Shown piece after piece: positions 15,586-30,928 of a DNA stretch of 32,000 bases. Under the pieces are notes generated by a model. That model saw only the letters and a program-made list of their open reading frames with translations, searched no databases and was not told the DNA's origin. Each line of letters opens with the position of its first letter. Position 1 is the first letter of the stretch. A program made the position numbers and the translations under genes. The stretch lies in NCBI GenBank assembly GCA_964589485.1, contig CAZPRK010000002.1, positions 453 to 32,452 of the forward strand, in the 5' to 3' direction. The stretch is from an uncultured Methanosarcinales archaeon. Its GTDB lineage: Archaea > Nanobdellota > Nanobdellia > Woesearchaeales > CAYSVS01.

Positions 15586-15627
15586 ATTCTAAAGTTATAT
15601 AAATGAAAAAACTTTCTACTAAAAATT

Positions 15628-16914
15628 ATGAAAATAACAGTAATAGGAGTAGGATATGTTGGATTAGTAACAGGAGCATGTTTTTCTGATTTAGGAAATG
15701 ATGTTATTTGTTTAGACGTTGATTCTTCTAAGATTGAAAATTTAAATAAAGGAATAATGCCTATATATGAACAAGGATTGAAAGATTTAGTTAATTTGAA
15801 TGTTCAACAAGAAAGGTTAACTTTTACAACTGATGTAAAATTTGCTATAGAAAATTCTGATGTTATTTTTATTGCAGTTGGTACTCCGCAAGATGAAGAA
15901 GGAAAAGCGGACTTAAAATATGTTAAAGAAGTTGCTAAAACTATTGGAACTTATATGAACACTTACAAAGTTATTGTAAATAAAAGTACAGTTCCAGTTG
16001 GAACTGGAGACTTAGTTAAATCTATAATTAAAAATGAAACAGATCATGAGTTTGATGTTGTAAGTAATCCTGAATTTTTAAAAGAAGGAGCTGCAATTAA
16101 AGATTTTATGACTCCAGATAGAGTTGTTTTGGGCGTTGAAAATGAAAAATCAAAAGAAATTATGTTACGGTTATACAAATCTTTGGAAAGAGTTGGAAAA
16201 CCAATTGTTTTAACTGACGTTAGAAGTGCAGAGTTAATTAAATATGCGTCAAATGCAATGCTTGCAACAAGAATATCTTTTATGAATGAATTATCAAGGT
16301 TATCTGAAAAAGTTAATGCTGATATTAAAAAAGTTGCAAGAGGTATAGGGTTAGATGATAGGATAGGACCTAGATTTTTACATGCAGGAGTTGGGTATGG
16401 AGGATCGTGTTTTCCGAAAGATATTCGAGCTTTAATTAACACTGGGAAAGAAAATCAAGTTAATTTGAAAATATTACAAGCAGTTGATGATGTTAATGAA
16501 GAACAAAAGAAAAGTATTGTTCCTAAAGTTTCAAAATTAGTTGGAGATTTATCTGGAAAAAAAATTGCAGTTTGGGGATTGGCATTTAAACCTAAGACTG
16601 ATGATGTAAGAGATGCTCCTGCTTTAGTTATTGTAAAAGAATTATTAGATAAAGGTTGTATAGTATTCGCTTTTGATCCAGTTGCTCAACATAATTTTTC
16701 TTCTTTGGTTTCAGGAGTAGAGTATGCAGAAAATCCTTACGATATTTTACAAGATGCAGATTGTTTGTTAATTTTAACAGAATGGGATTTGTTTAGAGAA
16801 CTTGACTTTGACAAAGTTAAAAGTTTAATGAAAAATCTTAATTTAGTAGATGGAAGAAACATATATGATCCCGAAGAAATGAAAGAATTTAATTATATTG
16901 GTGTAGGGAGATGA
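15628..16914 (+). CDS. ugd: UDP-glucose 6-dehydrogenase
   Basis: It has a Rossmann start (KITVIGVGYVGLVTGACFSDLGNDV), a catalytic GGSCFPKD and a C-terminal UDP-binding domain. TTATATAAAT lies about 30 nt upstream, so the mRNA is near-leaderless. Confidence 0.92.
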   Translation: MKITVIGVGYVGLVTGACFSDLGNDVICLDVDSSKIENLNKGIMPIYEQGLKDLVNLNVQQERLTFTTDVKFAIENSDVIFIAVGTPQDEEGKADLKYVKEVAKTIGTYMNTYKVIVNKSTVPVGTGDLVKSIIKNETDHEFDVVSNPEFLKEGAAIKDFMTPDRVVLGVENEKSKEIMLRLYKSLERVGKPIVLTDVRSAELIKYASNAMLATRISFMNELSRLSEKVNADIKKVARGIGLDDRIGPRFLHAGVGYGGSCFPKDIRALINTGKENQVNLKILQAVDDVNEEQKKSIVPKVSKLVGDLSGKKIAVWGLAFKPKTDDVRDAPALVIVKELLDKGCIVFAFDPVAQHNFSSLVSGVEYAENPYDILQDADCLLILTEWDLFRELDFDKVKSLMKNLNLVDGRNIYDPEEMKEFNYIGVGR

Positions 16915-17624
16915 AAGTAATTATTTTATGTGCAGGATATGCAACTAGACTTTATCCATTAACTATAGATAAACCTAAACCTTTACTTTCAGTTGGTGGA
17001 AAATTAATTATTGATTATATTTTAGATAAAGTAAAAGAAATAGATGTTTCCGATGTATTCGTAGTTACTAACGATAAATTTTATCCTTTGTTTAAAGAAT
17101 GGAATAATGATGTAAAAGTTATTAATGATAAAACTATTTCAAACGATGATAGATTAGGAGCAATAGGTGATATTCTTTATGTTATTGAAAATGAACATAT
17201 AGATGATGATGTTTTAGTTATAGCTGGAGATAATTTATTTGAATTTAGTTTACAGGAAATGCAAAATATGTTTAATGAAAAAGGAACTGTTGTTGCTTTC
17301 AGAGATGTTGGAGATAAAAATTTAATTGCAAACAAATTGGGAACAGCTGACCTTGATTCAAATAATAAAATAATTGAATTTTTAGAAAAACCTTCATTTC
17401 CAAAATCTACTTTAGCTGCAACTGCATGTTACATGTTTAAGAAAGAAGATTTAATTGAACTTAAAAAATGTATAGAAGAAAATAAAAAACCAGATAATTC
17501 TGGAGATTTTATTAAATATTTAATAAGTAAAAAGGATGTATATGCATTTGTGTTTAATGAGAAATGGTTTGATATTGGAAGTCATGATCAGTTAAAAGAA
17601 GCTGATGAATTTTATTCTGAATAA
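16911..17624 (+). CDS. Sugar-phosphate nucleotidyltransferase (glucose-1-phosphate NTP-transferase-like)
   Basis: It has the N-terminal motif ILCAGYATRLYPLTIDKPKPLL, a later GDNLF and WFDIGS. It overlaps ugd by 4 nt. Confidence 0.85.
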   Translation: MKVIILCAGYATRLYPLTIDKPKPLLSVGGKLIIDYILDKVKEIDVSDVFVVTNDKFYPLFKEWNNDVKVINDKTISNDDRLGAIGDILYVIENEHIDDDVLVIAGDNLFEFSLQEMQNMFNEKGTVVAFRDVGDKNLIANKLGTADLDSNNKIIEFLEKPSFPKSTLAATACYMFKKEDLIELKKCIEENKKPDNSGDFIKYLISKKDVYAFVFNEKWFDIGSHDQLKEADEFYSE

Positions 17625-17679: not shown

Positions 17680-18195
17680 ATGAGAAAATTAATATTATCT
17701 GTATTCTTTGTTTTAATTCTAGTTGTTTCTGTTTTCGGTTTTTTTTCTAATGTTCAAAAAGAGCAAGATTGTGTTGATATTGTACACGAAGAAGAAGTTA
17801 CTTCGGTATCAACATGTACTTCTGAACGAATAGTTAAAACTTGTGATGATACTAATACTACTTGTGATGAAATAACTGAATCTTTTCAACATAAATGTTT
17901 AAACACTTCAATAGTTAAAACAATAGAAAAAAAATGTGTAACTAAATCTTTAACTTTAGATAATCATAAAATTAATGTTGAAGGTTATGAATGTTCTGTT
18001 AATGATAATGTTGTAATTTGTGATTCTAAGTTTGATGGGAATGGAGACGGAATATGTACTTCTGGAGAAAGTTGTATGAAATTTGATTTTGATCAAGGAA
18101 GTTATACTCAGTATGAAAAGAATAGTAATTTGGATTTTGTTGAAAGTGATGAAAGTTTCTTTGTAGATAAAGCTTCAGTGGAGGTTTTAAAATGA
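17680..18195 (+). CDS. Small Cys-rich secreted or membrane-anchored protein, first gene of the toxin operon
   Basis: It has an N-terminal hydrophobic segment (LILSVFFVLILVVSVFGFF) and at least 14 Cys in 171 aa. GGGGTG lies before the ATG, and a TATA-like CTATTTATATC sits at about 17633-17643. I recognise no family. Confidence 0.65.
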   Translation: MRKLILSVFFVLILVVSVFGFFSNVQKEQDCVDIVHEEEVTSVSTCTSERIVKTCDDTNTTCDEITESFQHKCLNTSIVKTIEKKCVTKSLTLDNHKINVEGYECSVNDNVVICDSKFDGNGDGICTSGESCMKFDFDQGSYTQYEKNSNLDFVESDESFFVDKASVEVLK

Positions 18196-19910
18196 AAAGA
18201 TTAATTTTATTTTTATTATTACTTCCAATTGTAAGTGCATGGAACCTTCCAAGTGAAACTGATGGTTTTCATATGATTTTACCTTTAGATACTAATTTAT
18301 TAGATAGTGTTAGTAATAGTTCTACTGGTGGAAATTCTAATTGGAAACTTAATGCTGGAGCTACTAATTTTACTTCAATTTCTCGTGATGGGAACGGTGC
18401 TTACAGTATTCAAACTTCAAATGATAATACAATATATAATGATAGTAATTTTGATCAAGCATTTGCTAGTGGAGGAGCTATATGTTTTTCGGTTTATCCT
18501 CATGAGGATATTACTGTTGATGATACGATGATTTGGCAAAATCCAAATACTGGTGGTCAGTTTGATGGACATACTTCAATTGGATATAATGCAGTTTGGC
18601 CTTACAAATGGAGAAGGGAAGATAACCCTGGAGGATCCGGTGAAAAATCTATCACTATTCCATATAATGTAGAACTTGATGCTTGGAATTCTTTATGTTT
18701 AGTGTATAATAATAGTTACCATAAATTTTGGCTTAAGAATAATAATGGATCAGAATGGAGTGTTACGGATACAACTCAAAGTAGCGGTGCAGGGTTTGTT
18801 GGATCACATTCAGATTATTTAGGTAATACTTACCTTTATGGAAGTGCTGACGCCCCAGGAGATGTTGGAGTTAACGTTATCGTAGATGGTTTAGTTGGAT
18901 TTAAAATTTGGCCAGATGAACATTTATTAGAAAGTTATCATGCAGGAAATTGGACTATTGTTGATTCAAATGCTCCTGTGTTTTCATCAATAAATTGTAC
19001 ATCTTGTAATGATGCCGTTTCACCATACTCTAGTTCAAATTTATCTCCTTCATTTTATTTTGAAACAGATGTTAATGCAAATTGTAGAATTGCTAGTACA
19101 AATATAAATTATACTGCAATGGGAAGTTCAAAAAATTGTTATCAAGGTCAAGGTGAAAATACTCATACTTGTATTTTAACAGATGAATTAGATAGTGTTG
19201 TTGATTATGTGTATGCAGCATGTCAAAATAGTATTAGTTCTAATGAAAATTCAACAACTTTTTTGATGGACATAATTGCACCTCAAATTACAGCAATAAA
19301 TTGTACTTCATGTAACATTCCTAATGGTGATGTTGTTGCACCTTATACGACTTCAGATACAACTCCTACATTTACATTTAATACTGATGTTGGAAGTTAT
19401 TGTAGAGTTTCAGATTCAGCATTAAATTATTCAGTTTTAGGGGATTCTAGAAATTGTACAGGCGGACAAGGTGGAAGAAGTCATACTTGTAGTTTAACAG
19501 TTCAAGACGAATTAGTTTCTTCAACTGATAATATGTATGTGATTTGTGAAAATGGAGTAGTTGATAATGGGTATAGTACATTACAAATGGACATAACTAA
19601 CTTACAAGGTAATACTTCGAATGCAATTGAATGGGGAATTCAAAATAGTTCAATTTGGCCAAATGTTAAAATTTACACAAATCAACAAATTTATCTTCGT
19701 AATTTACAAAATCAACAAGTGTTGGCTACTGCCGATAAAGTTGCAGTTTATAAAAATCAAAGATGGATTTTAAATGTAGCTATTGATTCTGAAAGTAAAC
19801 TTGGATTGTTTAATTTAACGCCAGTTGTTTATGTTTTAGACATGGCTAACATTTCTATAACTGATATAAGGTCAAAAGTAAGTTCATTAATAACGGCTAC
19901 TGTAAAATGA
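18192..19910 (+). CDS. Secreted LamG/concanavalin-A-like lectin-fold protein with two Cys-containing repeat modules
   Basis: It has a signal peptide (MKRLILFLLLLPIVSA). The N-terminal 250 aa have a LamG_3-like pattern (LPLDTNLLDSVSN...GGAICFSVYP...WNSLCLVYNN). Two modules of about 102-107 aa start at INCTSCN. There are ATGA overlaps with both neighbouring genes. Confidence 0.6.
   Translation: MKRLILFLLLLPIVSAWNLPSETDGFHMILPLDTNLLDSVSNSSTGGNSNWKLNAGATNFTSISRDGNGAYSIQTSNDNTIYNDSNFDQAFASGGAICFSVYPHEDITVDDTMIWQNPNTGGQFDGHTSIGYNAVWPYKWRREDNPGGSGEKSITIPYNVELDAWNSLCLVYNNSYHKFWLKNNNGSEWSVTDTTQSSGAGFVGSHSDYLGNTYLYGSADAPGDVGVNVIVDGLVGFKIWPDEHLLESYHAGNWTIVDSNAPVFSSINCTSCNDAVSPYSSSNLSPSFYFETDVNANCRIASTNINYTAMGSSKNCYQGQGENTHTCILTDELDSVVDYVYAACQNSISSNENSTTFLMDIIAPQITAINCTSCNIPNGDVVAPYTTSDTTPTFTFNTDVGSYCRVSDSALNYSVLGDSRNCTGGQGGRSHTCSLTVQDELVSSTDNMYVICENGVVDNGYSTLQMDITNLQGNTSNAIEWGIQNSSIWPNVKIYTNQQIYLRNLQNQQVLATADKVAVYKNQRWILNVAIDSESKLGLFNLTPVVYVLDMANISITDIRSKVSSLITATVK
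18972..19598 (+). repeat. Tandem in-frame duplication (two units of about 306-320 nt) inside the LamG-like gene
   Basis: Unit 1 reads APVFSSINCTSCN..SPSFYFETDVNANCRIAS..NYTAMGSSKNCYQGQGENTHTCIL..FLMDII. Unit 2 reads APQITAINCTSCN..TPTFTFNTDVGSYCRVSD..NYSVLGDSRNCTGGQGGRSHTCSL..LQMDIT. Confidence 0.8.
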
Positions 19911-22900
19911 AATTAAAATTATTTTTTATGTTTTTGTTACTTGTTCAAGTTAGTTACGCGGCTAGTGAATATAGACCTTATTTACATGAAGCTGTAGTGC
20001 CAGAACATCCAGATGTAAAGTTATTTGGACAATATAGTACTAATTTATTTCCTGGAGCTGCAACTTATAGTTATGGTATAGAAGTTCCTAAAGGAGTAAA
20101 TGGTTTACAGCCTTTAATTTCTTTAAGTTATAATAGTCAATCAAATGATAAGTGGACTTTTACTTCAAGTTACATTTATAGAGATAGAAATAGTACTATT
20201 AGTGATGAAAGTGATGATGAGTTTATTTTAATTTTGGAAGGAGTTGCATATGAATTAAGGTATGATGGAAATTTTTGGCATACTGAAGTAGAATCTTATT
20301 TTAAAGTTGAAAATTATAGTAACCATTGGGTTTTGACTAAGAAAAATGGGAAAAAATATACGTTTGGAAATAATTCATTAATTTCTAATCATAGATGGTA
20401 TGTTGATCAAGTTACAGATTTACATGGAAATAATATTTATTATAATTATTTCTTAGATAATGGTACATTGAAAATATTAAACGTAAAATATAATAATGAT
20501 CAAACTAGAGAAATTAAATTTAATTATGAAGAAAAACCTAGACAAAGAGTTGTATATGATAATGGTTTAATAGTTCATGAAACAAAAAGAGTTAAAGATA
20601 TTTCTGTTTTTGCTCCTTCTTTAGTAAGAAGATATTCTTTTTCTTATACACAACTAAGTCCATTTATATCTTCACTTTCTTTAATTAAATATTTTGGAAG
20701 TGATAATAGTTCTATTTTACATAATATTAGTTTTGATTATTATATTTCTAATTTAGATATTGAAAATAGTACTGAAGATTGGGATGCACCTGAATCTTTT
20801 ACTAATGTGAATAATTATGATTTTGGGGTTAGGTTAGTTGATTTTAACCATGATGGATATGTTGATATGGTTCAAGGAAATCAAGATACTGAAACTAAAA
20901 ATGTTTGGATTAATAATAAAACAAAAGGATGGGTGAATTTAAGCACATGGAATGTTCCTGAATATTTTGTTCATACTGATAAAACAGATCAAGGAGTTAG
21001 ATTAATGGATATTAATAATGATGGATTTGTTGATACGATTAAAGCAAGAGATGGAGATAGAGTTGTTTATCTTAATAATAAAACTGGATGGAATTTGAGT
21101 AGTTGGGTAATGCCTTTAGATATTTTAAATTCTGTAGCAGAAGATATGGGTATTAGATTCGGAGATGTTAACGGAGATGGATTTATTGATTTTATTAGAG
21201 CAAAAGGTGGTAGTAGGAATGTTTATTTGAATAATAGAACTGGTTGGGTAGATTCATGGAATAATTTTCCTGCAGATTTTACAACTGCTGCTGGTAAGGA
21301 TAGTGGTTTAAGATTATTGGATGTAAATGGAGATGGATTGCCAGATCTTACTAAAAGTACTCCAACAAGTAGTAATACTTGGTTAAATAATGGATCAGGT
21401 TGGGAAAGTTATTCGAAATTTATATCTCCTGTTGCTTTTATAACTTCAGAAGATAAAGATAACGGAATAAGATTCTTAGATTTAAATAAAGATGGTTTAA
21501 TTGACTTTTGGGAGGGTCATGATACAACTTTGAAAGCTTATATAAATAACGGAACAGGTTGGATTGAAAATAATACTTGGGCTCCAAGAGAAGCTTTATT
21601 GTATAATAATGAGAATACAGGAAGAAGATTAGCCGATGTTAATGGAGATGGATTTGTTGATGTGATTATAAGTCATGATAATATTGGCAAGTATACTTAC
21701 TTGAGAAATTTTACACTTCCTTACTTATTAAAATCAATAACTAATGAATATGGAGGAAAGGTTGTAATAAATTATAGTACTTCTACTTCATTTAATAATT
21801 CTGAAAATGGATTTAGTGAACTTGGATTTAATTTATTTGTTGTAACTAATGTTACAATGAATGGGTCAGTTTCTTATAACTATTCTTTTGGAAAGTATAA
21901 TTATAATAAAAATGAATTTCGAGGTTTTGGGAAAAGTGTTGAAATAAAGCCTGGAAAAGTAATTAAACATTATTTTTATCAAGATGATCCTAGGAAAGGT
22001 AAAGAGTTTAAAACTGAAGTTTTTGGAAATAGTTTGTTATCAAAAAATGTTAAAGATTATAATTATACTTATAATGGAGTGTATAATGTAAGTTTAATTT
22101 TTTCTTCTGATTATATTTATGACGGTTTAGAAGTTCCTAAAGTTACAAATAAAACTTATGTTTATGATTCATTTCATAATTTAATTTCATTAAAAGATTT
22201 GGGAGATATTAATATAGAAGGAGATGAACATTATACTAATTATACTTATTCTACTAAAAATTGGATTTTAGATAGAATTGCCTCAGTTACTGAATTTGAT
22301 TCAGATAATAATAAAGTAAAACAAACTAAATATTTTTATGATAACTTAGGATTGAATGCATTAGGAAGTTTTGGAGATTTGACTAAAGTAGAAAAATGGT
22401 CTTCGAATAGTTCTTTTAATTATTTTGTATATGATAATTTTGGTAATTTGATTAGAGAAATTGATAGTCTCGGGGGAAGTACTAAATATGGTTATGGATT
22501 GTATAATACTTATTTAGCTTATTCAGTAAATCCTTTAGGACATATTACTTCTTTTGGATATGATTTGGGTACAGGTAACTTAATATTTCAAGAAAGTAAT
22601 GGAATTAATACTTCATTTGAATATGATGTTTTTGGTCGTATATTAAAAGAAATTAAACCTTATGATTCTTTACTTTTACCAACTAAGAACTATACTTATG
22701 TATTTGATGGGACTGTTCCTGAATTAGTTAAAGTTTCTTCAAGAACTACAAGTAATAAAAGTGATTCAATTTCTTATTATTATGACGGATATGGAAATTT
22801 AATTCAAATTAAAACAGATGTTGATTCAAGACAAATTGTAAAAAATATTTTTTATGATTCTGAATTTAGAGTTTTTTCAGAACAAAATCCTTATTTTTCT

Positions 22901-25240
22901 GCTAAAACTGAAAATTTATCTTCAATTTCAAATGATGCAAGAACATATTATACTTATGATGCTTTGGATAGAGTAATTGGTGTGTTGAATTCTGATTCTA
23001 CTTCTAAGAATGTTACTTTTTTACAATATAATATTACTGATTTTGATGAAAATAGTAATAAACATATTTATACATTAGATGGTCGTGGGAGAATTTCTAA
23101 AGTATATGAATTTAATTTGGGAGAAACTTATGTTACTTTTTATACGTATGATGGTAATGATAATTTAGTTTTAATTGTTGATAATGAAGGTAATGAATTC
23201 AGTTTTACTTATGATTCATTGAATCGTAAGGTTAGAATGAACGATCCAGATTTAGGAGAATGGAATTATTATTATGATGTTAATGGTAATTTGGTTAGGC
23301 AAGAAGATGCAAAAAATAATACTATTACTTTAAATTATGATTTATTGAATAGAATATTGCATAAAAATTCTTCTAATGTAAATATAACTTTCAATTACGA
23401 TAAAGATTATTTAGGAACTTTAAGTAATTTAACAATGGGAGACATTGTATTTAAGTATGAATATGATGATAGATTAAGGTTAGTAAAACAAATTCAAAAT
23501 TTGGAAGGAGTTGAAGTAACTAATGAATATCTTTATGATAGTCAAGATAGGTTAATTTCAGAAAATTCATTAGATTACATTTACAATTATCAAGGATTAG
23601 TTTCTTCAATTCCTGGGTATATTGATTCTTCTTTTTATAGTGCTTTCGGAACTATGCTTAATAGAAGTTATAATAATGGGTTATTACAAACTTTTAGTTA
23701 TATTGATGATAATAATAGATTAAAGTTAATTAATATTAACAATGTTCAAAATTTAAATTATACTTACGATAATGTTGGAAATATTTTGAAGATTGTAGAT
23801 TCAAATAAAAATCATATTTTAACTTATGATGGATTGGATAGATTAGTTACTGCAACAATTGGTTCTGATAATTACAGATATGCATATAATTCTATAGGAA
23901 ATATTATGAATCTAGTTAGTAATAATAATGCTAAGAAATTTATTTATTCATCAGGACATGCACCTGTTAAAATATTAGAAAATGTTTCCAGTGTTGATTT
24001 GTATAATCCAAAGGATACAAATTCAGGAAATAAAACCCGAACATTTAAGTTTAATTTAACTCAAGATACAAATATTAACAGTACAGCGAATTGGACAGTT
24101 TATTTTGGAGATGGTAGTAGTTCATCAGGTTCAACTACAGATTCTTTAGTAACTGTTCAGCATACTTATGCAAATGGGGGAACTTACGATGTTGGTTTTG
24201 TTACAGATTATGATGAACAAAATCTTTCTTTAACTTTTGGAGCAAGAGCTGAATCTTTAACTTTGGTTTCAAGTAATACTTCTACTAGATTATTTGAGTT
24301 AAAAATAACTAATGATATGTTAGAAAATGCATTAAATGTTGGTTGGAATTGCAGTTTGGGTTTAAGCTCTACTTCTTTGGTTAATTTATCTTCAGAGATG
24401 TATGTAAATATTACTGCAAACTTCACAACTCCTGGAAATAAATTGTTTAATTGTACAGTTACTTCAGATGATGGTAGTGAAAGTATTACTTTACCTTTAG
24501 AAGTTAAAGGATTAGAAGTTAAAGAGTATGATGTTTTATTAGAAAATAAATCTAAACGTATTGTGTCTTATAACTTAGTTAATCATTTTTCAACATTAAA
24601 TACTAACCTATCTCATAATATTGAAGGGTTTTCTACAACTGTAAATGTAAGTGATGATGTGATGGTGTTTGCAGAAGTAAATTATACTTCAGACGGACAT
24701 AATGAATTTATAATAACTTCAAATTATTCCACTGGATATGTGGATAGTTTTACTAAAGTTGGAGTTAGTATTGAGAATTTCTCAAGAGTAAATAATATAA
24801 TTAATATGATGTTATACAATTATTGGTATCCTGGAACTATTTATTTTAACATTAGCGAAGTAGATAACTCTACAACTGAAAATATACTTAAGTACAACAA
24901 AGAAGTTTCTAAAGATAGAGTTGAAGTTTCTGCATTTACTTCATCTTATGTTGATAAATTAATTAGTGTTTATTTAGGAAATCCTTTCCAAGTTTCATTA
25001 TTAACTTTACATGAAGGAGAAATAGTAGTAAATGAGTTAATTGTTGATAATGATCAAGGTCAGTTAATTGATTGGCAATTTAATACTGGAGTTGAAAATG
25101 TATTTTCTACAAATTCAGTAAATGATAGCGTAATGGTGTTTATAGAAAGTAATTATTCTATAGATGGAGTGTATAAAACTGTTGCAACTGTTAATAGTTC
25201 TTCTAATTCTAATAATGTTACTGGGGTGGTTGTTAAATGA
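19907..25240 (+). CDS. TcB/TcC-like RHS shell protein (SpvB N-domain, FG-GAP/VCBS propeller, YD repeats) with a C-terminal PKD/Ig-like region and no RHS core
   Basis: It has a signal peptide (MKLKLFFMFLLLVQVSYA) and an SpvB-type motif (GAATYSYGIEVPKGVNGLQPLISLSYNS). Six D.N.DG..D repeats span 20.83-21.67 kb (DFNHDGYVD, DINNDGFVD, DVNGDGFID, DVNGDGLPD, DLNKDGLID, DVNGDGFVD). It has a TcdB-mid-like ITNEYGG..NYS..FVVTNV and many YD repeats (YDNFGNLIREID, YDVFGRILKEI, YDGYGNLIQI, YDVNGNLVRQED, YDNVGNILKIVD, YDGLDRLV) up to about 23.92 kb. A PKD-like WTVYFGDGSSS...HTYANGGTYDV lies at about 24.09-24.21 kb, followed by repeated sequon-rich modules. Confidence 0.9.
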   Translation: MKLKLFFMFLLLVQVSYAASEYRPYLHEAVVPEHPDVKLFGQYSTNLFPGAATYSYGIEVPKGVNGLQPLISLSYNSQSNDKWTFTSSYIYRDRNSTISDESDDEFILILEGVAYELRYDGNFWHTEVESYFKVENYSNHWVLTKKNGKKYTFGNNSLISNHRWYVDQVTDLHGNNIYYNYFLDNGTLKILNVKYNNDQTREIKFNYEEKPRQRVVYDNGLIVHETKRVKDISVFAPSLVRRYSFSYTQLSPFISSLSLIKYFGSDNSSILHNISFDYYISNLDIENSTEDWDAPESFTNVNNYDFGVRLVDFNHDGYVDMVQGNQDTETKNVWINNKTKGWVNLSTWNVPEYFVHTDKTDQGVRLMDINNDGFVDTIKARDGDRVVYLNNKTGWNLSSWVMPLDILNSVAEDMGIRFGDVNGDGFIDFIRAKGGSRNVYLNNRTGWVDSWNNFPADFTTAAGKDSGLRLLDVNGDGLPDLTKSTPTSSNTWLNNGSGWESYSKFISPVAFITSEDKDNGIRFLDLNKDGLIDFWEGHDTTLKAYINNGTGWIENNTWAPREALLYNNENTGRRLADVNGDGFVDVIISHDNIGKYTYLRNFTLPYLLKSITNEYGGKVVINYSTSTSFNNSENGFSELGFNLFVVTNVTMNGSVSYNYSFGKYNYNKNEFRGFGKSVEIKPGKVIKHYFYQDDPRKGKEFKTEVFGNSLLSKNVKDYNYTYNGVYNVSLIFSSDYIYDGLEVPKVTNKTYVYDSFHNLISLKDLGDINIEGDEHYTNYTYSTKNWILDRIASVTEFDSDNNKVKQTKYFYDNLGLNALGSFGDLTKVEKWSSNSSFNYFVYDNFGNLIREIDSLGGSTKYGYGLYNTYLAYSVNPLGHITSFGYDLGTGNLIFQESNGINTSFEYDVFGRILKEIKPYDSLLLPTKNYTYVFDGTVPELVKVSSRTTSNKSDSISYYYDGYGNLIQIKTDVDSRQIVKNIFYDSEFRVFSEQNPYFSAKTENLSSISNDARTYYTYDALDRVIGVLNSDSTSKNVTFLQYNITDFDENSNKHIYTLDGRGRISKVYEFNLGETYVTFYTYDGNDNLVLIVDNEGNEFSFTYDSLNRKVRMNDPDLGEWNYYYDVNGNLVRQEDAKNNTITLNYDLLNRILHKNSSNVNITFNYDKDYLGTLSNLTMGDIVFKYEYDDRLRLVKQIQNLEGVEVTNEYLYDSQDRLISENSLDYIYNYQGLVSSIPGYIDSSFYSAFGTMLNRSYNNGLLQTFSYIDDNNRLKLININNVQNLNYTYDNVGNILKIVDSNKNHILTYDGLDRLVTATIGSDNYRYAYNSIGNIMNLVSNNNAKKFIYSSGHAPVKILENVSSVDLYNPKDTNSGNKTRTFKFNLTQDTNINSTANWTVYFGDGSSSSGSTTDSLVTVQHTYANGGTYDVGFVTDYDEQNLSLTFGARAESLTLVSSNTSTRLFELKITNDMLENALNVGWNCSLGLSSTSLVNLSSEMYVNITANFTTPGNKLFNCTVTSDDGSESITLPLEVKGLEVKEYDVLLENKSKRIVSYNLVNHFSTLNTNLSHNIEGFSTTVNVSDDVMVFAEVNYTSDGHNEFIITSNYSTGYVDSFTKVGVSIENFSRVNNIINMMLYNYWYPGTIYFNISEVDNSTTENILKYNKEVSKDRVEVSAFTSSYVDKLISVYLGNPFQVSLLTLHEGEIVVNELIVDNDQGQLIDWQFNTGVENVFSTNSVNDSVMVFIESNYSIDGVYKTVATVNSSSNSNNVTGVVVK

Positions 25241-26520
25241 AATCACTCCAAAGAATTGCTTTGCTTTTATCTATGCTTATGATATCTTTACCTATTGTAT
25301 TCTCATTAGAATTAACTTATGATGCGAATGGGAACTTAGTTACTGGTGATGGAAAATATAGAGAATATAATAGTTTGAATCAATTGTATAAAGTGTATAA
25401 TGGAAGTTCAGATGCAGGAACTTTATTACAGGAATATAAACATCATCCTACTGAGGAGAGAATTCTAGTTAAGAAAGAATATTTTGTTAACGGAAGTGTT
25501 AAGGAAAGAACTATTTATATTTCTAAAAGTTTAGTTAAGGTAATTAATAGTTCAGGTGAATTTGATTTTAATTATGTTTACCATAATGGTCAGTTGATAG
25601 CTCAAGAAATGAACGGAGATAAGAAGTTTATTCATGCAGATCATTTAGGAAGTAGTAGTGTTGTTACTGATAGTTCAGGCACAGTAATAGAGAATACTAC
25701 TTATTCTCCACATGGTGAAGTTGTATCGGGTGGAACTAAATCAAGATTCGGATACGAAGGCAAAGAGTTTGATTCTGTAGTAGGAGATACAGATTTCTAT
25801 TTTAGGAAATATAAACCTGAGTGGGGATTATTTACTCAACCTGATACTTTGATTCAGAACGTATACGACCCACAATCTCTAAACAGATACATGTTCGAGA
25901 GGGGTAACCCGTATAAGTATACTGATCCAAGCGGACATCAACCAGAATCTCCTGCGGGTGCAGTAGAAGAAGCAAATAAAGTAATAGCATCCTACCTTTA
26001 TGGTTTGGAAAGAAAAAGAATGGAGGAAGACAAACGTTATGAAAGATTATATGAGCTTTATCATGCTGAAAATCCAGAATTACCAAATAGTCCTTATGTT
26101 AATGTTTTAGTTTCAGCAGGGGGAAGCAGAACTATAGTTGAAAAACAAAGAAGAATAAGTTTAGGCATTCTTGAATCATGGAATTCTGTAAAATTAGATA
26201 AATTTGTTCAACAATCAAAAGTGATCCACATTGGCAATTCTTTAACTACTGCACAGCCTAAAATCTCTACTTCTTTAGATTCAGGAGGAAGTTCTTCAAG
26301 TGGATCATCTAGTGGAGGATTATTAAGTAAAATATGGAATTGGTTTACAGCAGGAGATGGAGATGATGGTTCTTCAAGTTCTTCTTCTTCATCAAGCAGT
26401 GGAAGTTCATCAAGTTCCTCTTCTAGTAGTAGTTCATCCAGCTCATCAGGAAGTTCATCCTCTTCAAGTGGAGGCGGATCCTCTGGAGATAGCAGTCCTT
26501 GGTGGTGTTTTTGGTGTTGA
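25237..26520 (+). CDS. RHS repeat-associated core protein with its own signal peptide, an unclassified C-terminal toxin region and a poly-Ser tail
   Basis: It has an N-terminal hydrophobic leader (IALLLSMLMISLPIVFS), a YD repeat (LTYDANGNLVTG) and core motifs (HADHLGSSSVVTDSSG..YSPHGE..FGYEGKEFDSVVGDTDFYFRKYKPEWGLFTQPDT..NRYMFERGNPYKYTDPSGH). The variable region after DPSGH starts at nt 25939. It has an ATGA overlap with the shell gene. Confidence 0.9.
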   Translation: MKSLQRIALLLSMLMISLPIVFSLELTYDANGNLVTGDGKYREYNSLNQLYKVYNGSSDAGTLLQEYKHHPTEERILVKKEYFVNGSVKERTIYISKSLVKVINSSGEFDFNYVYHNGQLIAQEMNGDKKFIHADHLGSSSVVTDSSGTVIENTTYSPHGEVVSGGTKSRFGYEGKEFDSVVGDTDFYFRKYKPEWGLFTQPDTLIQNVYDPQSLNRYMFERGNPYKYTDPSGHQPESPAGAVEEANKVIASYLYGLERKRMEEDKRYERLYELYHAENPELPNSPYVNVLVSAGGSRTIVEKQRRISLGILESWNSVKLDKFVQQSKVIHIGNSLTTAQPKISTSLDSGGSSSSGSSSGGLLSKIWNWFTAGDGDDGSSSSSSSSSSGSSSSSSSSSSSSSSSGSSSSSSGGGSSGDSSPWWCFWC

Positions 26521-26560
26521 CATTAATATTGGAAAAATTTAAAAATAATCAGGTGTTAAT

Positions 26561-27073
26561 ATGACTAATCAAATAAAAAAATTATTGATTCATCCTAAAA
26601 TGTTTTTTAGAGGTTTGAAAGAGGAAAAAAGCTATAAGAAAGCTTTAGTACCTTTCATCGTATTTTCTTTACTGATATATATATTTTGGTTTATTAAAAT
26701 TATATTACAAGTCAATAATACTCCTTTTTATTCAGGACCATCTTACTATGATTTTTTATTTGGAAACTTTGGTTTATTTTTTACCATCTATGCATTGGTC
26801 TTTTTGATTGCTGATATTATTATTTCACTTTTTTTCACGTTAGTAATAGTAGCTTTAGCTAAATTTATATGTTATTTAATAAAAGTAAAAATTTCTTTAA
26901 ATAAGATCTGGATTATATCAGTATATAGTTTAATTGCCTTTGTGTTGGCAAGTTTATTTCACTTTATAGCTTATTTTATCAACACTGCATTTTTAAAATA
27001 TGTTGGTTATGTATTCTACGCTTACTATCTCGTTCTTTTAATAATTGGAATTTTTGAGAATAGAGAAAAATAA
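26561..27073 (+). CDS. Multi-pass membrane protein, candidate immunity protein for toxin tip 1 (Yip1-like topology)
   Basis: It is 170 aa with 4-5 TM helices and starts 40 nt downstream of the toxin gene, the position expected for an RHS immunity gene. The family call is tentative. Confidence 0.55.
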   Translation: MTNQIKKLLIHPKMFFRGLKEEKSYKKALVPFIVFSLLIYIFWFIKIILQVNNTPFYSGPSYYDFLFGNFGLFFTIYALVFLIADIIISLFFTLVIVALAKFICYLIKVKISLNKIWIISVYSLIAFVLASLFHFIAYFINTAFLKYVGYVFYAYYLVLLIIGIFENREK

Positions 27074-27149
27074 TCCGTATAAGTATACAGGTCCAAGCGG
27101 ACATATAATTCCAGTACTAGCTCATCGAATTGAGTTTAGAAATGTTTAA
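27072..27149 (+). pseudogene. Remnant of an RHS core/toxin junction (NPYKYTGPSGH plus 14 codons)
   Basis: AATCCGTATAAGTATACAGGTCCAAGCGGACAT is near-identical to AACCCGTATAAGTATACTGATCCAAGCGGACAT at 25906-25938. It translates to NPYKYTGPSGHIIPVLAHRIEFRNV*. It has no start codon and begins at the immunity gene's stop codon. Confidence 0.8.
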
Positions 27150-27157
27150 ATAATACA

Positions 27158-27203
27158 TTTACGGTACGTAAAGTATAAAACTCAATTTTCCTTTTTTCTC
27201 GTC
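27158..27203 (+). repeat. Copy 1 of a 47-bp direct repeat containing TTTACG-GTA-CGTAAA
   Basis: TTTACGGTACGTAAA at 27158-27172 is identical to 29108-29122. A shared TTTTCTCGTC lies 36-37 nt downstream (27194-27203 and 29145-29154). The intervening sequence is about two-thirds similar and includes a TATA-like GTATAAAA. Confidence 0.8.
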
Positions 27204-27283
27204 ATAAATGGCTTTTTTAATTTCTAAAAAAACATGTTTTTTTCTATGGAATACTTTATATATTTTGAAGAAATTAGTTACTT

Positions 27284-28471
27284 ATGGAAGCTTTATATCC
27301 CGAATCAGTAAGACTTATCTCTAGTGATTTTTTTGGATTAAAGGAACTTAAAGGTATTAATGACGCAAATGGTAATTTATTACGAGATGGATCAGGCTTT
27401 CAAAGAGAGTACAATGGTTTAAATCAGTTGGTTAGAGTGCGTAATATTTCATCTAATATTGTTATACAAGAATATGTGCATGATCCATTTGAAGAAAGGA
27501 CTGTGATTAAGAAAATATATTTTAACAATGGAAGTCTGAAAGAGACTCACTTCTACTTTGATCGTGAATATGTAAGAATAACTAACAACACCGGAACATA
27601 CGATACAGAGTACGTCTTCATAGACAGTCAGCAAGTAGCAGAAGTTAAACATGATGGAGCTAAACAATATATACACACAGATCATTTAGGAAGTAGTAGT
27701 GTTGTTACTGATTCTAATGGAATAGTAATAGAGAATACTACTTATTCACCTCATGGAGAAGTATTAACAGGTGGAGAAGCAACTAGATTCGGATATGAAG
27801 GAAAAGAACATGATAGTGTAGTTGGAGATACTGATTTTCATTTCAGGAAGTACTGTTCAAGATTTGGTATATTCTGCCAACCAGATACAATAATACAAAA
27901 TGTATATGACCCACAATCTCTAAACAGATACATGTTTGAAAGAGGGAACCCGTACAATCAGATTGATCCTGATGGTCATTTACTGCCTTTATTATTCTGG
28001 GGTACATTTCTTATTGCTGCAGCGGTGGCAACAACAATTATTGCCATAGATAAATATCAAAAAGAGGACAATTCTGGTTTAGCAGAAACAGGTGTAACCC
28101 AAGCTGCTACAATAGTTTTTGAAAGTGTAGCACCTAAAGCAGCTGGCCCTGTTGGTGTAATATTAGGGAGTGCTTCAATAGCTGAGGGATTAGTTATTAC
28201 TTATGAAGATTTTACAAAAGATAAAGAAGGTGAAGAAAATACAGCTTCGCTTAAGATGAAAAAAATTACGTATATCGATGAAAATGGAAATCAAATACTT
28301 TTAACTGTGCCTGAAGAAACCAACAGATTATCAATCTCAACTGAGGGAGGTGGTATGACGAGGGCAGTTCCAGTTTATACAAGAAAAGATGGAAATGTTG
28401 TATGGGGTGACTCAAACAATGTTAATATTCCTGATGATGCTACTTCTATCGTAGATGATTTAGATAATTAA
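27284..28471 (+). CDS. Orphan RHS core protein with a second, different C-terminal toxin region (no signal peptide, no shell)
   Basis: It is homologous to 25237-26520 across the YD repeat and core (NDANGNLLRDG, HTDHLGSSSVVTDSNG..YSPHGE..FGYEGKEHDSVVGDTDFHFRKY..NRYMFERGNPYNQIDPDGH). The sequence after DPDGH (nt 27980 onward) is unrelated to tip 1 and begins with a TM helix (LLPLLFWGTFLIAAAVATTIIAI). Confidence 0.88.
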   Translation: MEALYPESVRLISSDFFGLKELKGINDANGNLLRDGSGFQREYNGLNQLVRVRNISSNIVIQEYVHDPFEERTVIKKIYFNNGSLKETHFYFDREYVRITNNTGTYDTEYVFIDSQQVAEVKHDGAKQYIHTDHLGSSSVVTDSNGIVIENTTYSPHGEVLTGGEATRFGYEGKEHDSVVGDTDFHFRKYCSRFGIFCQPDTIIQNVYDPQSLNRYMFERGNPYNQIDPDGHLLPLLFWGTFLIAAAVATTIIAIDKYQKEDNSGLAETGVTQAATIVFESVAPKAAGPVGVILGSASIAEGLVITYEDFTKDKEGEENTASLKMKKITYIDENGNQILLTVPEETNRLSISTEGGGMTRAVPVYTRKDGNVVWGDSNNVNIPDDATSIVDDLDN

Positions 28472-28512
28472 AATAGGTAAATTTATTAAATCTTGAAATA
28501 ATAAGGATAAAT

Positions 28513-28761
28513 ATGACACTAAATAAAAATGTTCAATGGTTAATTATTGCATTTGCACCGATATCTATTATATTTGCAGTTATTTTTAGTTATCCAATTA
28601 TTCTTACGCTATATTCTATTCTTATTTTATATTTGATAGGTAAATATGAGAATGAGTTTGTGCTTTGCCCAAAAAAATCAAAAGAGAAGTTTATATCAAA
28701 AGTATTTCTATATATTATAATTATATTCACAATTGCTATTCAAATATATATGTTGAGCTAA
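28513..28761 (+). CDS. Small two-TM protein, candidate immunity protein for toxin tip 2
   Basis: It is 82 aa with two hydrophobic helices separated by KYENEFVLCPKKSKEK. It starts 41 nt downstream of the orphan toxin gene. Confidence 0.5.
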   Translation: MTLNKNVQWLIIAFAPISIIFAVIFSYPIILTLYSILILYLIGKYENEFVLCPKKSKEKFISKVFLYIIIIFTIAIQIYMLS

Positions 28762-28787
28762 TTAACATGGCATTTATTAATAAATGT

Positions 28788-28801
28788 ATTTTACGTAAAA
28801 T
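28788..28801. repeat. Perfect 14-bp palindrome ATTTTACGTAAAAT
   Basis: It is self-complementary and shares the TTTACG/CGTAAA half-sites with the 47-bp repeats at 27158 and 29108. Confidence 0.7.
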
Positions 28802-28885
28802 ATATTGTATTATTTTATACGGTGACCAAATATAGTGAAACTTACTGTACTAACTTCGTCTATAAAATGCTTTTTACACCCACTT

Positions 28886-29092
28886 TTACTGGGTATTGAT
28901 TTTTAGCATTTTTTCAAGGTTTTTTTTCACTCCTTTTCTATGAGTGGCAAGTCCTAATTTCTTATACTTAGTTACTAAATTCTTATTTGAAACGATAAAC
29001 ATCCACCTATCTTTGTATTTTTTATTTAATGCTTTAACTTTATCACTACATTGTTTCCTCTTTTGCAATAAATTACCAGTTTCAATTTCCAA
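28886..29092 (-). CDS. Lys-rich small hypothetical protein (possible gene fragment)
   Basis: This 68-aa ORF starts at TTG, with the first ATG only at codon 31. Its composition is more protein-like than the overlapping plus-strand ORF. I recognise no motif. Confidence 0.3.
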   Translation of the reverse strand: MEIETGNLLQKRKQCSDKVKALNKKYKDRWMFIVSNKNLVTKYKKLGLATHRKGVKKNLEKMLKINTQ

Positions 29093-29107
29093 AGCATATA
29101 TTTTACT

Positions 29108-29154
29108 TTTACGGTACGTAAATTATACTCAGTGATAATTCTTATTTTCTCGTC
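29108..29154 (+). repeat. Copy 2 of the 47-bp direct repeat containing TTTACG-GTA-CGTAAA
   Basis: See copy 1. It lies in the gap between the small minus-strand ORF and the IS91-like gene. Confidence 0.8.
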
Positions 29155-29193
29155 TAAAGACAAATTTTTGAATTTTAAAAATGAGGTGATTTT

Positions 29194-29945
29194 ATGTTCT
29201 CTGTAAGGCAGATATTAAAGGACAACTGGGATAGGTATGTCCAAAGACACAATCCTAACAAATATCAGCGCCAAGTAGTGCGAGCTATGTTAAAATGTTC
29301 TAAATCAAGCTGCAACTCTAGGTTGTGCTCTTCTTGTGGAAAAAGATTCACCGATAGTTGGGCGAATTGGATTAAGGACTACTTATATGACATTAACCAT
29401 TTTCATGTACTTCTTACTATTCCAGCAATTTTAAGACCTAAGTTAAGAAAATGGAAAAATCTTAAAATCCTCATGGATTCGTCACGGGATTTTTTAGATC
29501 AATTTCTAGTGATAACTTTGGAATTATAGTAGTACTTCACACTTTTGGAAAAGACTTAAAGTTTAATCCACATCTTCATATTATATCAACAACCAGACTA
29601 AATGAAAGATTTAGCAGGATATGGAGAAAAATTGTTTTAGAAAACCTCCAAGCACCATCAAACAAATATTACTATGGATATTTTGTCTGGTCTGACAAAA
29701 GAAAATTAAATATCAGAAAGATATCTAAATATCTTGCTAGATATATAAGGCATCCTGTCATGGCTGATAAGAGAATTATTTTTTATAGGGGTGAAACCAT
29801 TCAATTCAAAGCAGGTCAGAATATTAAGAAAATGAAAACTGATGATTTCATAACAAGCTTAATTCAACATGTGCCGCCTAAACATTTTAGGCTGATAAGA
29901 CACTATGGAAGGTATAGAAGAAATTTTACGGATTACAATCCGTGA
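29194..29945 (+). pseudogene. IS91-family (Y2 HUH rolling-circle) transposase, frameshifted and shortened
   Basis: It has a zinc-binding N-domain (CSKSSCNSRLCSSCGKRFTDSW...HFHVLLTIP). After a stop at 29527-29529 the family motifs continue in another frame from about 29505 (GIIVVLHTFGKDLKFNPHLHIIST, YLARYIRHPVMADKRI, PPKHFRLIRHYGRY). The total of about 250 aa is shorter than I expect for an intact IS91-family transposase. Confidence 0.75.
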
Positions 29946-30095
29946 AGCTGCAGATTATGTTTCAAAAAACACCTCATCAAAATTTACGGATTATGTTCCG
30001 CAAATCATAAATAAATGTAAATAGTTGATGATGAACATCAAACACCCATTAATATTTACTAAACATTTATAAATTCTTGATGTAATTATATATTA

Positions 30096-30425
30096 ATGGA
30101 TTATGTTCAATATGTTAAGAACAAATTAAAAATTTACAAAAAAGATGATATAAAAATTACAGCTCATGCTTTGATAAGGTTAGCACAAAGACAAATAGAT
30201 AAAAAAGAGATAATTCAGAATTTAATCAATCCAACACGTTTAGATTATGCGATAAAAGAAGAAGCAAATGTTCCAAGTGAAGAAAAATTCGATTGCTATT
30301 TCGGATATAGCAAAACACAATGTCATAGATATGTGATAATATTAAAAGAAAATGTAGTAGTGGTTACAGTTGTTAAACTTAATAGAAGGTGGCAAAAAAT
30401 TGCAGAAAAAAAGCTTAAGAGGTAA
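30096..30425 (+). CDS. DUF4258-family protein (predicted toxin-like small nuclease fold)
   Basis: It has the motif pattern ITAHALIRLAQRQIDKKEIIQNLINP...RYVIILKENVVVVTVVKL, typical of DUF4258. A TATA-like TTTATAAATT lies about 25 nt upstream. Confidence 0.65.
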   Translation: MDYVQYVKNKLKIYKKDDIKITAHALIRLAQRQIDKKEIIQNLINPTRLDYAIKEEANVPSEEKFDCYFGYSKTQCHRYVIILKENVVVVTVVKLNRRWQKIAEKKLKR

Positions 30426-30431
30426 GTAAAA

Positions 30432-30791
30432 ATGTGGAAAAAATTCAAATTTGATTATGATTTAGAAAATGATGATTTATTTTTATATGATAAAAAATCA
30501 AAATCTAAAGGAAGTATTGAAATAGATGACATTGTTATAGATTTTGATACAAATATGGCTGTTTCTGCAATTGAATTGATGAATGCTTCAAAATTTTTTA
30601 AAGATTTAAGTTTTGAAGGTTTAAATATAGATAAAGAAGTACTTAACAAAATTCAAGAATGTAAAGTTGAAATAATTCCCAAAAGCAATTTTTTTGTAAT
30701 TAAACTATTATTATTGCTGGAATCTAAACAAGAAATAAGAACACCAATTATTATTCCTACTGTGAGTGAACCAAGTCCTGCTGTTGTTTAA
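30432..30791 (+). CDS. DUF2283-family protein (partner of DUF4258)
   Basis: It has YDLENDDLFLYDKK...IVIDFDTNMAVSAIELMNASK, the DUF2283 signature pattern (YD.E.D.L.I...iDld..G.ivGIEil.AS). It starts 6 nt after the upstream gene. Confidence 0.65.
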   Translation: MWKKFKFDYDLENDDLFLYDKKSKSKGSIEIDDIVIDFDTNMAVSAIELMNASKFFKDLSFEGLNIDKEVLNKIQECKVEIIPKSNFFVIKLLLLLESKQEIRTPIIIPTVSEPSPAVV

Positions 30792-30793
30792 CG

Positions 30794-30928
30794 ATGCTTG
30801 CAATCTACCCACAATCAGTAAGTATATTTGGATTAAACAACATCCATACAGATCATTTAGGAAGTAGTACTGTTGTTACTGATTCTAATGAAAATGTAAT
30901 TAATAACACAATCTATACACCTAATTGA
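30794..30928 (+). pseudogene. Collapsed third orphan RHS cassette (leader joined directly to a core fragment)
   Basis: It translates to MLAILPQSVSIFGLNNIHTDHLGSSTVVTDSNENVINNTIYTPN*. The first 16 aa parallel MEALYPESVRLISSDFFGLKEL of the 27284 gene. Nt 30849-30883 match 27678-27712 with one mismatch. Confidence 0.8.

Follow-up and report, generated by a model that had tools for sequence, protein, structure and literature searches.

Arrays of orphan modules behind an expressed Rhs or CdiA gene are the textbook bacterial way of diversifying contact-dependent weapons. In Rhs systems such as those of Salmonella Typhimurium LT2 and Dickeya dadantii, the core ends in a DPxG motif, beyond which an unrelated tip and a small cognate gene are found, and the orphan rhs-CT/rhsI copies downstream have varying homology to the core and no export or translation signals. 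Homology between direct repeats allows an orphan tip to be loaded (PMC3150448, PMC3967940). At loci for contact-dependent inhibition of growth (CDI), tandem CdiA-CT/CdiI pairs lie behind the expressed gene, interspersed with insertion sequence (IS) fragments; the orphans mostly lack initiation signals, and one module can stand at different array positions in different strains (PMC3150448). A further related system is the TcB-TcC cocoon of Photorhabdus and Yersinia (TcdB1-TccC, YenB-YenC), in which two polypeptides form the shell, the first with a TcB propeller and a TcdB_toxin_midN domain, and in which TcC combines an Rhs core autoprotease with a hypervariable region, several alternative C subunits per locus being possible (PMC7861908). 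For archaea, the parts consulted of the survey by Zhang et al. 2012 (PMC3482391) list a TcdB/TcaC-type RHS class of polymorphic toxins for some Euryarchaeota, and Makarova et al. 2019, as quoted in PMC8416519, predicted C-terminal cassettes in arrays. Here we describe a locus that resembles the latter as far as the quotation gives it, with a long first gene and then C-terminal-homologous genes that each have an immunity gene. It lies in a 32,000-nucleotide stretch of archaeal DNA (contig CAZPRK010000002.1 of assembly GCA_964589485.1, positions 453 to 32,452; hereafter the window) and comprises a shell gene, an exported Rhs-core cartridge with a variable tip (gene A), an orphan cartridge (gene B) and two core remnants. 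Taking all parts of the explanation jointly, we consider it probable that this is a TcB/TcC-like Rhs polymorphic-toxin operon of a DPANN (Woesearchaeota-like) archaeon, and that the exact tracts shared by its cartridges are patches of gene conversion or crossover.

The archaeal origin of the window is given by the RadA that it encodes, which passes both archaeal equivalog models, and the nearest related loci belong to Woesearchaeota/Nanoarchaeota. The window has a G+C content of ~28%, includes a 5S rRNA and is contained in a 35.4-kb JGI metagenome contig. Genes A and B were recognised by TIGR03696 (RHS repeat-associated core domain, curated cut-off 32.5 bits) at 52 and 50 bits, respectively, with the full model (1-76) covered in both. 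An earlier note on this DNA had seen in it the orphan-module logic of bacterial Rhs and CdiA within an archaeal locus, and the RadA, the relatives and the TIGR03696 matches agree with it.

Gene A (25237-26520; all features of the locus are on the + strand) encodes a cartridge of 427 aa, made of a Sec signal peptide, MKSLQRIALLLSMLMISLPIVFS (25237-25308), the last YD repeats and the Rhs core down to DPSGH (25309-25938), and a variable tip (25939-26520). The YD/RHS-repeat shell is not in the polypeptide of the core; the repeats sit in a separate upstream open reading frame (ORF) at 19907-25240, whose stop codon overlaps the start of gene A (ATGA), with GGTG at -12. The "expressed gene" of the earlier note, described there as bearing the shell, is thus in fact two separate overlapping ORFs, a shell of 1777 aa and the 427-aa cartridge. 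The shell protein has a signal peptide, a TcB-like N-terminal part, RHS/YD repeats and C-terminal PKD and immunoglobulin (Ig)-like domains (Pfam RHS_repeat 92 bits, FG-GAP_3 65 bits, TcdB_toxin_midN 59 bits, PKD; YD_repeat_2x 64.5 bits). Its residues 226-638 align to TcdB1/YenB (their residues ~325-740) and its residues 900-1348 to Rhs shells, its C-terminus is a stretch of ~430 aa of PKD/Ig-like domains, and an Rhs core is absent from it. That the shell ORF might carry its own copy of the YD part of the cartridge was rejected, because only generic YD-repeat matches were obtained (E > 0.6). An SpvB domain was detected only in the shell homolog of one related locus, L010 (related loci and contigs are numbered L, and single proteins P).

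The conserved part of gene A, ~210 residues long, corresponds in alignment to the C-terminus of the teneurin YD shell, and the last ~210 residues of this shell are, with E = 4e-10, the best solved-structure match of the part conserved between A and B. Teneurin differs in that its shell is one polypeptide of a eukaryotic adhesion receptor, with no cassette array. The TEN_YD-shell profile gave 23.8 bits for A and 22.6 bits for B, under its cut-off of 50, and matched only at model positions ~700-890. An AlphaFold model of the conserved 212 aa had a mean predicted local distance difference test score (pLDDT) of 56 and a predicted template modelling score of 0.35, with beta-hairpins at residues 1-130 and a core below pLDDT 50; a fold search started from it was set aside, the model being too poor, and sequence profiles were relied on instead.

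For the conserved 230 aa, ~120-135 homologs were found, most of them 250-450 aa long. They come overwhelmingly from metagenome-assembled genomes of Woesearchaeota, Nanoarchaeota and Pacearchaeota, with a few from Candidate Phyla Radiation (CPR) bacteria and Desulfobacterota; some are already labelled "RHS repeat-associated core domain-containing protein" by NCBI. Most full-length homologs have a signal peptide ending in ..CFA/AELNLxYDANGNL, and a hydrophobic N-terminus is present in 44 of the 58 that have YDANGN near the start. A mini-Rhs gene with its own signal peptide follows the shell gene, by an ATGA overlap or after a short gap, in L009, L010, L011, L012 and L016, the last being the complete chromosome of archaeon GW2011_AR15. 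The whole four-gene operon, consisting of two accessory genes (orf171 and orf572), a shell with an Ig-like C-terminus and a mini-Rhs, recurs across many DPANN genomes (L010, L011, L012, L014, L016, L022, L032, L037). Since the split recurs in many genomes, it is a conserved architecture and not a frameshift. Signal-peptide mini-Rhs genes, sometimes in tandem, were also seen in bacteria, namely in the Desulfonema magnum chromosome (L076), in relatives of cable bacteria (L084/L085) and in CPR bacteria (L013/L055/L069), so the split cartridge is not confined to archaea; horizontal transfer between DPANN and bacteria is likely.

These features set the locus apart from each of the described systems. 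With bacterial Rhs it shares the DPxG-type core end, the unrelated tips, the small cognate genes and the type of downstream copies, and with CdiA arrays the tandem tip/immunity pairs behind the expressed gene and the interspersed IS fragments. In contrast to bacterial Rhs, the host is a DPANN archaeon, the varying module is an entire small gene, Sec signal included, apart from the shell ORF, there is no type VI secretion or PAAR/VgrG context, the orphans have a conserved non-signal leader, and the homology between main copy and orphan is limited to 77% over 315 nt, with exact patches of 35 and 29 nt. Compared with CdiA, there is no CdiB/TpsA secretion domain, no FHA repeats and no VENN motif, and the boundary of the variable part is the Rhs core DPxGH. 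As to the cocoon, the two-polypeptide shell with a TcB-like first part is common to both, but 97% of TcC proteins are 851-1050 aa long and contribute about half of the shell (PMC7861908), whereas here the second subunit is of 395-450 aa, of which only ~210 aa are shell and plug. Both partners here have Sec signals, the shell ends in PKD/Ig-like domains, and small membrane "immunity" genes follow, which are absent from Tc loci. No TcA translocation subunit was found by profile searches of the upstream genes, and the window holds no ORF of TcA size. The locus therefore fails two Tc-defining features (the size of TcC and a TcA gene) and one classical Rhs feature (shell and core in one polypeptide). 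The archaeal surveys, in the parts consulted, list Euryarchaeota and not DPANN, and the portion of the literature covered gave no description of DPANN loci of this kind, of a split signal-peptide cartridge or of leader-type orphans. The tracts and the orphan logic are ordinary for such systems; what makes the locus a variant of its own is the archaeal group that hosts it, the split cartridge with its signal peptide and the leader conserved among orphans.

The core and what lies beyond it were compared among the homologs. In 16 core sequences (A numbering), the Asp of EFDSVVG is present in at least 90%, and the Asp of QPDTLI and the D..GH motif are invariant, the core-end motif being here DPxGH and not DPxGL. 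Two conserved Asp we take to be the catalytic residues of an autoprotease, as assigned from known TcC/Rhs structures, and cleavage is predicted. The tip of gene A, ~190 aa, has a poly-Ser tail and a WWCFWC end and no transmembrane (TM) helix. It is followed, with AGGTG at -10, by a gene for a Yip1-like five-TM membrane protein (26561-27073; Pfam Yip1 34.5 bits, cut-off 28.6), the presumed immunity protein of the A tip. The A tip aligns end to end with that of P0055 (49% identity over 193 aa, E = 3e-41), an orphan that is the second, leader-type (GTG-start) copy in L010 and is also followed by a Yip1-like protein. Yip1 homologs stand 3' of A-type tips in both L009 and L010, so that the A-type tip is succeeded by a Yip1-like protein in 3/3 genomes where it was found. 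One more Yip1 homolog, in L051, is downstream of a mini-Rhs whose tip gave no A-tip match.

Neither tip had a Pfam match to a toxin domain, the sole hit being a non-significant one to Saf_2TM for the B tip (E = 0.028). Among the homologs, the 120 tips of at least 60 aa span 79-265 aa (most of them 150-265) and for the most part show no sequence relationship to each other. A TM helix opens 54 of the 120, and TM segments occur in 81 of the 106 small ORFs downstream. From the TM-helix tips and the membrane proteins encoded downstream, together with the lack of a detected enzymatic toxin domain, we conclude that the tips are probably membrane-directed. Recurrent end motifs, either ..ALxRFWxK.. with a basic tail or WWCFWC/WWCLWC after a Ser-rich stretch, were observed in otherwise unrelated tips (in the window at 26400-26520, and in P0007, P0010, P0029, P0055, P0057, L009 and L010), which suggests a common C-terminal signal or a membrane-active element. 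In the poly-Ser region of gene A (26362-26385), the Ser-codon repeat of scaffold L005 is 14 nt short and includes a run of N, which suggests that the length of this tail is uncertain or variable among assemblies.

The same tips could be viewed differently, as C-termini of non-toxin surface proteins (signal peptide, extracellular YD part and core, TM segment, cytoplasmic tail), the arrays serving to vary the attachment of an episymbiont to its host. Almost half of the tips having a TM helix right after DPxGH, the many low-complexity, basic tails with recurrent ends (RFWxK, WWCFWC), the lack of a known toxin domain and the PKD/Ig-like domains of the shell, which are typical of adhesins, would all fit such proteins. 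However, the autoprotease core and the cleavage motif are invariant, and cleavage would sever the anchor; the A-type tip is without a TM helix; and the tip co-varies with a specific downstream membrane protein, as the A-type/Yip1 pair does, which is the signature of toxin and immunity. We hold the surface-protein explanation to be quite improbable.

Gene B (27284-28471, 395 aa) is an orphan cartridge. Where gene A has its signal peptide, B has the leader MEALYPESVRLISSDFFGL (MEALYPESV..FGL), followed by the YD part and an intact Rhs core to DPDGH. The similarity between A and B stops abruptly at DPSGH/DPDGH, and the B tip, unrelated to that of A, opens with a TM helix. Downstream is immB (28513-28761), encoding a membrane protein of 82 aa with three predicted TM segments, the presumed immunity protein of the B tip; it follows B in 13/13 contigs read. 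Two further copies keep only fragments of the Rhs core. The first, a displaced core-end remnant at 27072-27149, reads NPYKYTGPSGH plus 15 codons of an older tip and then a stop; it begins at the Yip1 stop codon, the TAA of which overlaps its first codon, and its identity with the end of the gene A core (25905-25938) is 91%. The second is the collapsed orphan R3 (30794-30928, 44 codons), in which the leader MLAIYPQSVSIFGL is fused directly to ..IHTDHLGSSTVVTD.. (..IHTDHLGSST..), with a premature stop and no tip. Like bacterial orphan modules, B has an intact core, neither a signal peptide nor GGTG, and its own tip and immB; R3 and the remnant are truncated. The earlier note was right about the orphan at 27284, which is without a signal peptide, keeps the YD part and the core (TIGR03696, 50 bits) and has a different tip and downstream gene. 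The three core copies that it counted do exist, but the total is four, the remnant at 27072-27149 having been missed.

The leaders of R3 and gene B (30794-30835 and 27284-27343) are alike at the DNA level, with AATCAGTAAG and TTTGGATTAAA common to both. The resemblance reported in the earlier note is therefore real, although the third ORF reads MLAIYPQSVSIFGL and not MLAILPQSV. Its idea of a common cassette format is borne out by the relatives, since the leader of the two orphans recurs on downstream copies from at least four other sources, M-Q/E-S/A-L-H/Y-P... being found on eight proteins. The consensus of the signal-less downstream copies is M/V/L-Q/E-S/A-L-H/Y/R-P...V-E/D-V-x-V-V..FGL-K. 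In L009 (1376, 3103, 10001) and L010 (10001, 11700) the leader DNA is C-rich and conserved at the nucleotide level (TGCAAyCCCTyCACCCTTCCCAAAT), with ATG, GTG or TTG starts, and the leader is joined to the conserved region at differing points. An origin of the leader as a decayed or frame-shifted signal peptide, or as 3' sequence of the shell gene, was rejected, local DNA alignment scores being no higher than those of shuffled controls.

Such a conserved leader raises the possibility that B is no silent store but an independently expressed paralog, either a cartridge using another route or an intracellular toxin-antitoxin-like module, so that diversity would come from having several cartridges and not from switching. 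The ORF of B is full, opens with ATG, retains an intact core and has an immunity gene next to it, and the TATA-like sequence TTTATATA lies at -29..-22 from its ATG, which is the spacing of archaeal leaderless promoters. In L009 and L010 the cassettes begin 1-26 nt behind the preceding immunity gene, in an operon-like manner, and an intracellular orphan module has a precedent in the orphan Rhs of Salmonella (PMC7043789). Against this, without a signal peptide B would not be exported together with the shell, and the GGTG ribosome-binding motif that is present 5' of A, Yip1, orf171 and orf572 is missing 5' of B, as it is 5' of R3. In L010 the start codon of leader-type copies is GTG or TTG, and 50-110 YD residues have been lost from several, R3 is clearly dead, and TATA-like strings are common in AT-rich DNA. 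Independent expression is a serious possibility, although not the one we favour.

The cartridges were also compared at the nucleotide level. The similarity of A and B extends over only 315 nt, at 77% identity (protein ~57-62%), and two tracts are exact. Tract 1, CAGATCATTTAGGAAGTAGTAGTGTTGTTACTGAT, is 35 nt long and is found at 25637-25671 in A and 27678-27712 in B, as the earlier note had reported, together with a copy in R3 (30849-30883) that has one mismatch, a G to C change that turns Ser into Thr. The codon phase is one and the same in all three copies, and their product DHLGSS(S/T)VVTD is the HxDHLGS motif located at the Rhs core entry; in 100 shuffles, zero matches were obtained by chance. 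Tract 2, GACCCACAATCTCTAAACAGATACATGTT, is 29 nt long, is exact at 25867-25895 (A) and 27908-27936 (B), and encodes DPQSLNRYMF.

The earlier note named as a refuting outcome that, at synonymous sites, the tracts would be conserved no more than the remainder of the core; instead, their conservation there is far higher. Of the residues identical between A and B, those outside tract 1 share the codon in 58/119 cases (49%) and those inside it in 11/11, with a permutation P of 0.0077 for the longest identical-codon run. Codon usage alone would give 64%, which is above the observed 49%, and outside the tracts the synonymous sites are therefore saturated. The codons of tract 2 are rare ones in this genome (GAC 8%, CTA 2%, AAC 12%, TAC 13%), with a probability of ~2e-6 for an independent match. 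These figures are hard to reconcile with the proposal that the tracts reflect no recombination at all and result from strong protein constraint combined with the extreme codon bias of a 28% GC genome. The tracts sit at the two most conserved peptide motifs of the core. The proposal draws on tract 1, which encodes the most conserved one and whose 11 codons are all genome-preferred (GAT 92%, CAT 95%, TTA 69%, GTT 64%), and on the permutation P for A and B alone being only 0.0077. It does not accommodate R3, which shares tract 1 at 34/35 nt with aligned flanks that are ~72% identical to B (from alignment figures). Nor does it fit ~70 other loci, where the tract peptides are written in many different codons, even among paralogs of one array (6-19 nt differences), so that there is no family-wide nucleotide constraint. 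Constraint and codon bias are in our judgement the least probable of the alternatives, and very improbable. The simplest reading is that the tracts would be footprints of short-patch gene conversion or crossover between cartridges. In the arrays of other genomes, paralogs likewise have mosaic exact tracts, of 20-239 nt and at varying positions. A tract is more safely taken as the footprint of a past gene conversion than as a proven site of future crossover.

Displacement of tips could also be followed in the relatives. The closest relative found for gene A, P0007 in L012, is 69-71% identical in the conserved part, with a like signal peptide and core, but its tip differs, being of the TM type and beginning with VIPILMAVG. 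The remnant at 27072-27149 (..GPSGH/IIPVLAH..) matches L012 across the end of its core and the beginning of its tip, at 81% nucleotide identity over 47 nt. It appears from this match to be the displaced ancestral tip, left behind when an incoming tip-plus-immunity block replaced the resident one. Core-end stumps, comprising the last ~30 residues of the core, are also present in L027, L029, L044, L049, L050 and L079, and in AR15 the 3' end of the shell gene is part of what was displaced. The A-type tip with its Yip1 partner is at position 1 of the array here, at position 2 in L010 and at position 3 in L009; these placements show movement of the pair between array positions across genomes.

Homologous exchange is not the only process for which traces remain around gene B. 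An IS91-family (Y2 rolling-circle) transposase pseudogene with its upstream region lies at 29100-29945, with a Zn_Tnp_IS91 fragment at 29194-29529 (111 aa) and a Y2_Tnp fragment at 29760-29945 (61 aa). A copy of the sequence that precedes the transposase is found at 27150-27250, and this similarity of ~100 nt (27150-27250 against 29100-29190) brackets B, immB and a small ORF, the copy being the left bracket of the B cassette. The exact 15-mer TTTACGGTACGTAAA occurs in both, at 27158-27172 and 29108-29122 (0.05 expected). The cartridges and immunity genes (25309-28761) have a G+C content at third codon positions of 0.16-0.22, higher than that of the housekeeping genes (0.13, 1-17624) and of the shell (0.11), a difference consistent with the cassettes having come from elsewhere. 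The array might hence have been built mainly by IS91-type rolling-circle capture of the B cassette (ISCR-like read-through), tract recombination being incidental. Yet only two transposase fragments were found, and not an intact Y2 HUH transposase with defined ori/ter ends; the TTTACGGTACGTAAA motif was found solely in this strain, and its hairpin is no more stable than shuffled controls. The arrays of L009, L010, L011 and L016 are without IS91 genes, and capture leaves unexplained both the exact in-frame core tracts and the remnant behind Yip1. As the main builder of the array, such capture is unlikely.

Under the explanation that we prefer, the plug-less, Sec-exported shell would receive its plug from the small, separately Sec-exported cartridge A, the two together forming the cocoon. 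As both partners have Sec signals, assembly would take place outside the cytoplasmic membrane, a point that is speculative. The core autoprotease, with its conserved Asp pair and DPxGH, would then cleave off the tip as payload, and the downstream Yip1-like membrane protein would protect the producer. The intact signal-less B with immB would be a spare cartridge, and the stump of the older tip at 27072-27149 and the collapsed R3 dead ones. Tract 1 and tract 2 each form direct repeats 2041 bp apart in one codon phase, which makes loading of the B tip onto A possible. RadA-dependent recombination at either tract would join the signal peptide and N-terminal part of A to the core end and tip of B, followed by immB, and the same event would delete the A tip and Yip1. 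With 35 and 29 nt, the exact stretches reach or exceed the minimum that RecA-family recombination is reported to need. In this scheme the toxin and immunity activities, the extracellular assembly of shell and cartridge, the autoproteolysis and the switching at the tracts are inferred, the roles of cocoon, payload and protective protein from the known biology of Rhs and TcB-TcC proteins.

Several points weigh against this explanation. Because recombination at a tract would lose Yip1, the recombinant would be sensitive to the A toxin of its siblings unless a duplication came first. The same difficulty was described for CDI orphans, where deletion of the immunity gene would leave the recombinant sensitive to the toxin of its siblings (PMC3150448), and is avoided if duplication precedes (PMC3967940). 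The tips are without a known toxin domain and a TcA-type delivery component is lacking; B, with its intact ORF, ATG, TATA-like box at leaderless spacing and conserved leader, may be expressed and not silent; it may have arrived with the IS91-type element, by transposition and not by homologous exchange; and tract 1, which uses only preferred codons, is by itself moderately significant. The population data point the same way. A survey of assembled contigs, found through exact-protein matches to A, B, Yip1 and immB, gave at least 13 contigs, which come from 12 samples (JGI, ENA and Logan), and in none of them was a recombinant or an alternative tip present at the expressed position. All had one gene order and were essentially 100% identical, the sole difference being the N run of L005, and all represent one strain. 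In the protein collection, there was no relative closer than 70%. A search of the JGI metagenome contig collection for the exact tract had 0 hits, but the source contig is also absent from that collection, so this result is uninformative. Of the proposal that the tract is a substrate for tip switching, what stands is that tips change array position across genomes and that a displaced remnant was left; recombinants were not met with in the at least 13 contigs, and the strain comparison suggested in the earlier note brought no alternative tip.

An assembly chimera as the source of the arrangement was rejected, since the JGI, ENA and Logan pipelines give it independently. A perfect palindrome, AAAAAAACATGTTTTTTT, is located at 27226-27243 (A7CATGT7), and five independent contigs break beside it, L003, L100 and L101 ending at 27257 and L007 and L008 starting at 27246, while others read through. 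These breaks were not counted as structural heterogeneity, because no alternative junction was seen and a technical cause is as likely.

The genomes of Woesearchaeota-type DPANN archaea are tiny, and a life attached to other cells is assumed for these organisms. To our knowledge, archaeal polymorphic toxin systems have only been predicted, and none has been tested. The locus brings to this group the full bacterial logic of an expressed module, immunity, displaced tips, orphans and conversion patches. With its ~400-aa cartridge and its presence in dozens of genomes, the compact split unit could serve to study the loading of a shell with its Rhs plug and payload, and the membrane-type tips and their immunity proteins are concrete candidates for first experiments on an archaeal polymorphic toxin. 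A broader and more doubtful idea, offered tentatively, is that DPANN and a few bacteria might have a so far undescribed "cartridge" type of Rhs cocoon, in which a plug-less shell protein and a ~400-aa protein with plug and payload leave the cell separately through Sec and join outside it, one shell thus being armed with interchangeable cartridges. The signal-less copies with the MQSLHP leader would then be a second functional class, stored or differently routed, and not decaying pseudogenes, and in an episymbiont the device could strike the host membrane and not competitors.

The operon opens upstream of the shell gene with orf171 (17680-18195), which encodes a small Cys-rich secreted accessory protein of 171 aa with an N-terminal hydrophobic signal; a Pfam search with it gave no match, and homologs are found at the equivalent position in L010, L014, L022, L032 and L037. 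Next is orf572 (18192-19910), for a secreted accessory protein of 572 aa with a signal peptide and no match in Pfam or NCBIfam, the C-terminal 200 aa of which are conserved 5' of the shell gene in L010, L011, L014, L016, L022, L032, L037 and L052. In L010 and L011, the homologs of orf171 and orf572 had either no domain match or Laminin_G_3. At the other end of the locus, a toxin-antitoxin-like DUF4258/DUF2283 pair (30096-30791; Pfam 26 and 25 bits, just over the cut-offs) lies between the IS debris and R3, whose ATG is 2 nt after the DUF2283 stop codon. Elsewhere in the window, an IS5-family transposase is found at the left end (32-919; NF033581, 162 bits), and a folate-biosynthesis gene cluster at ~10.7-14.9 kb, both unrelated to the toxin locus.

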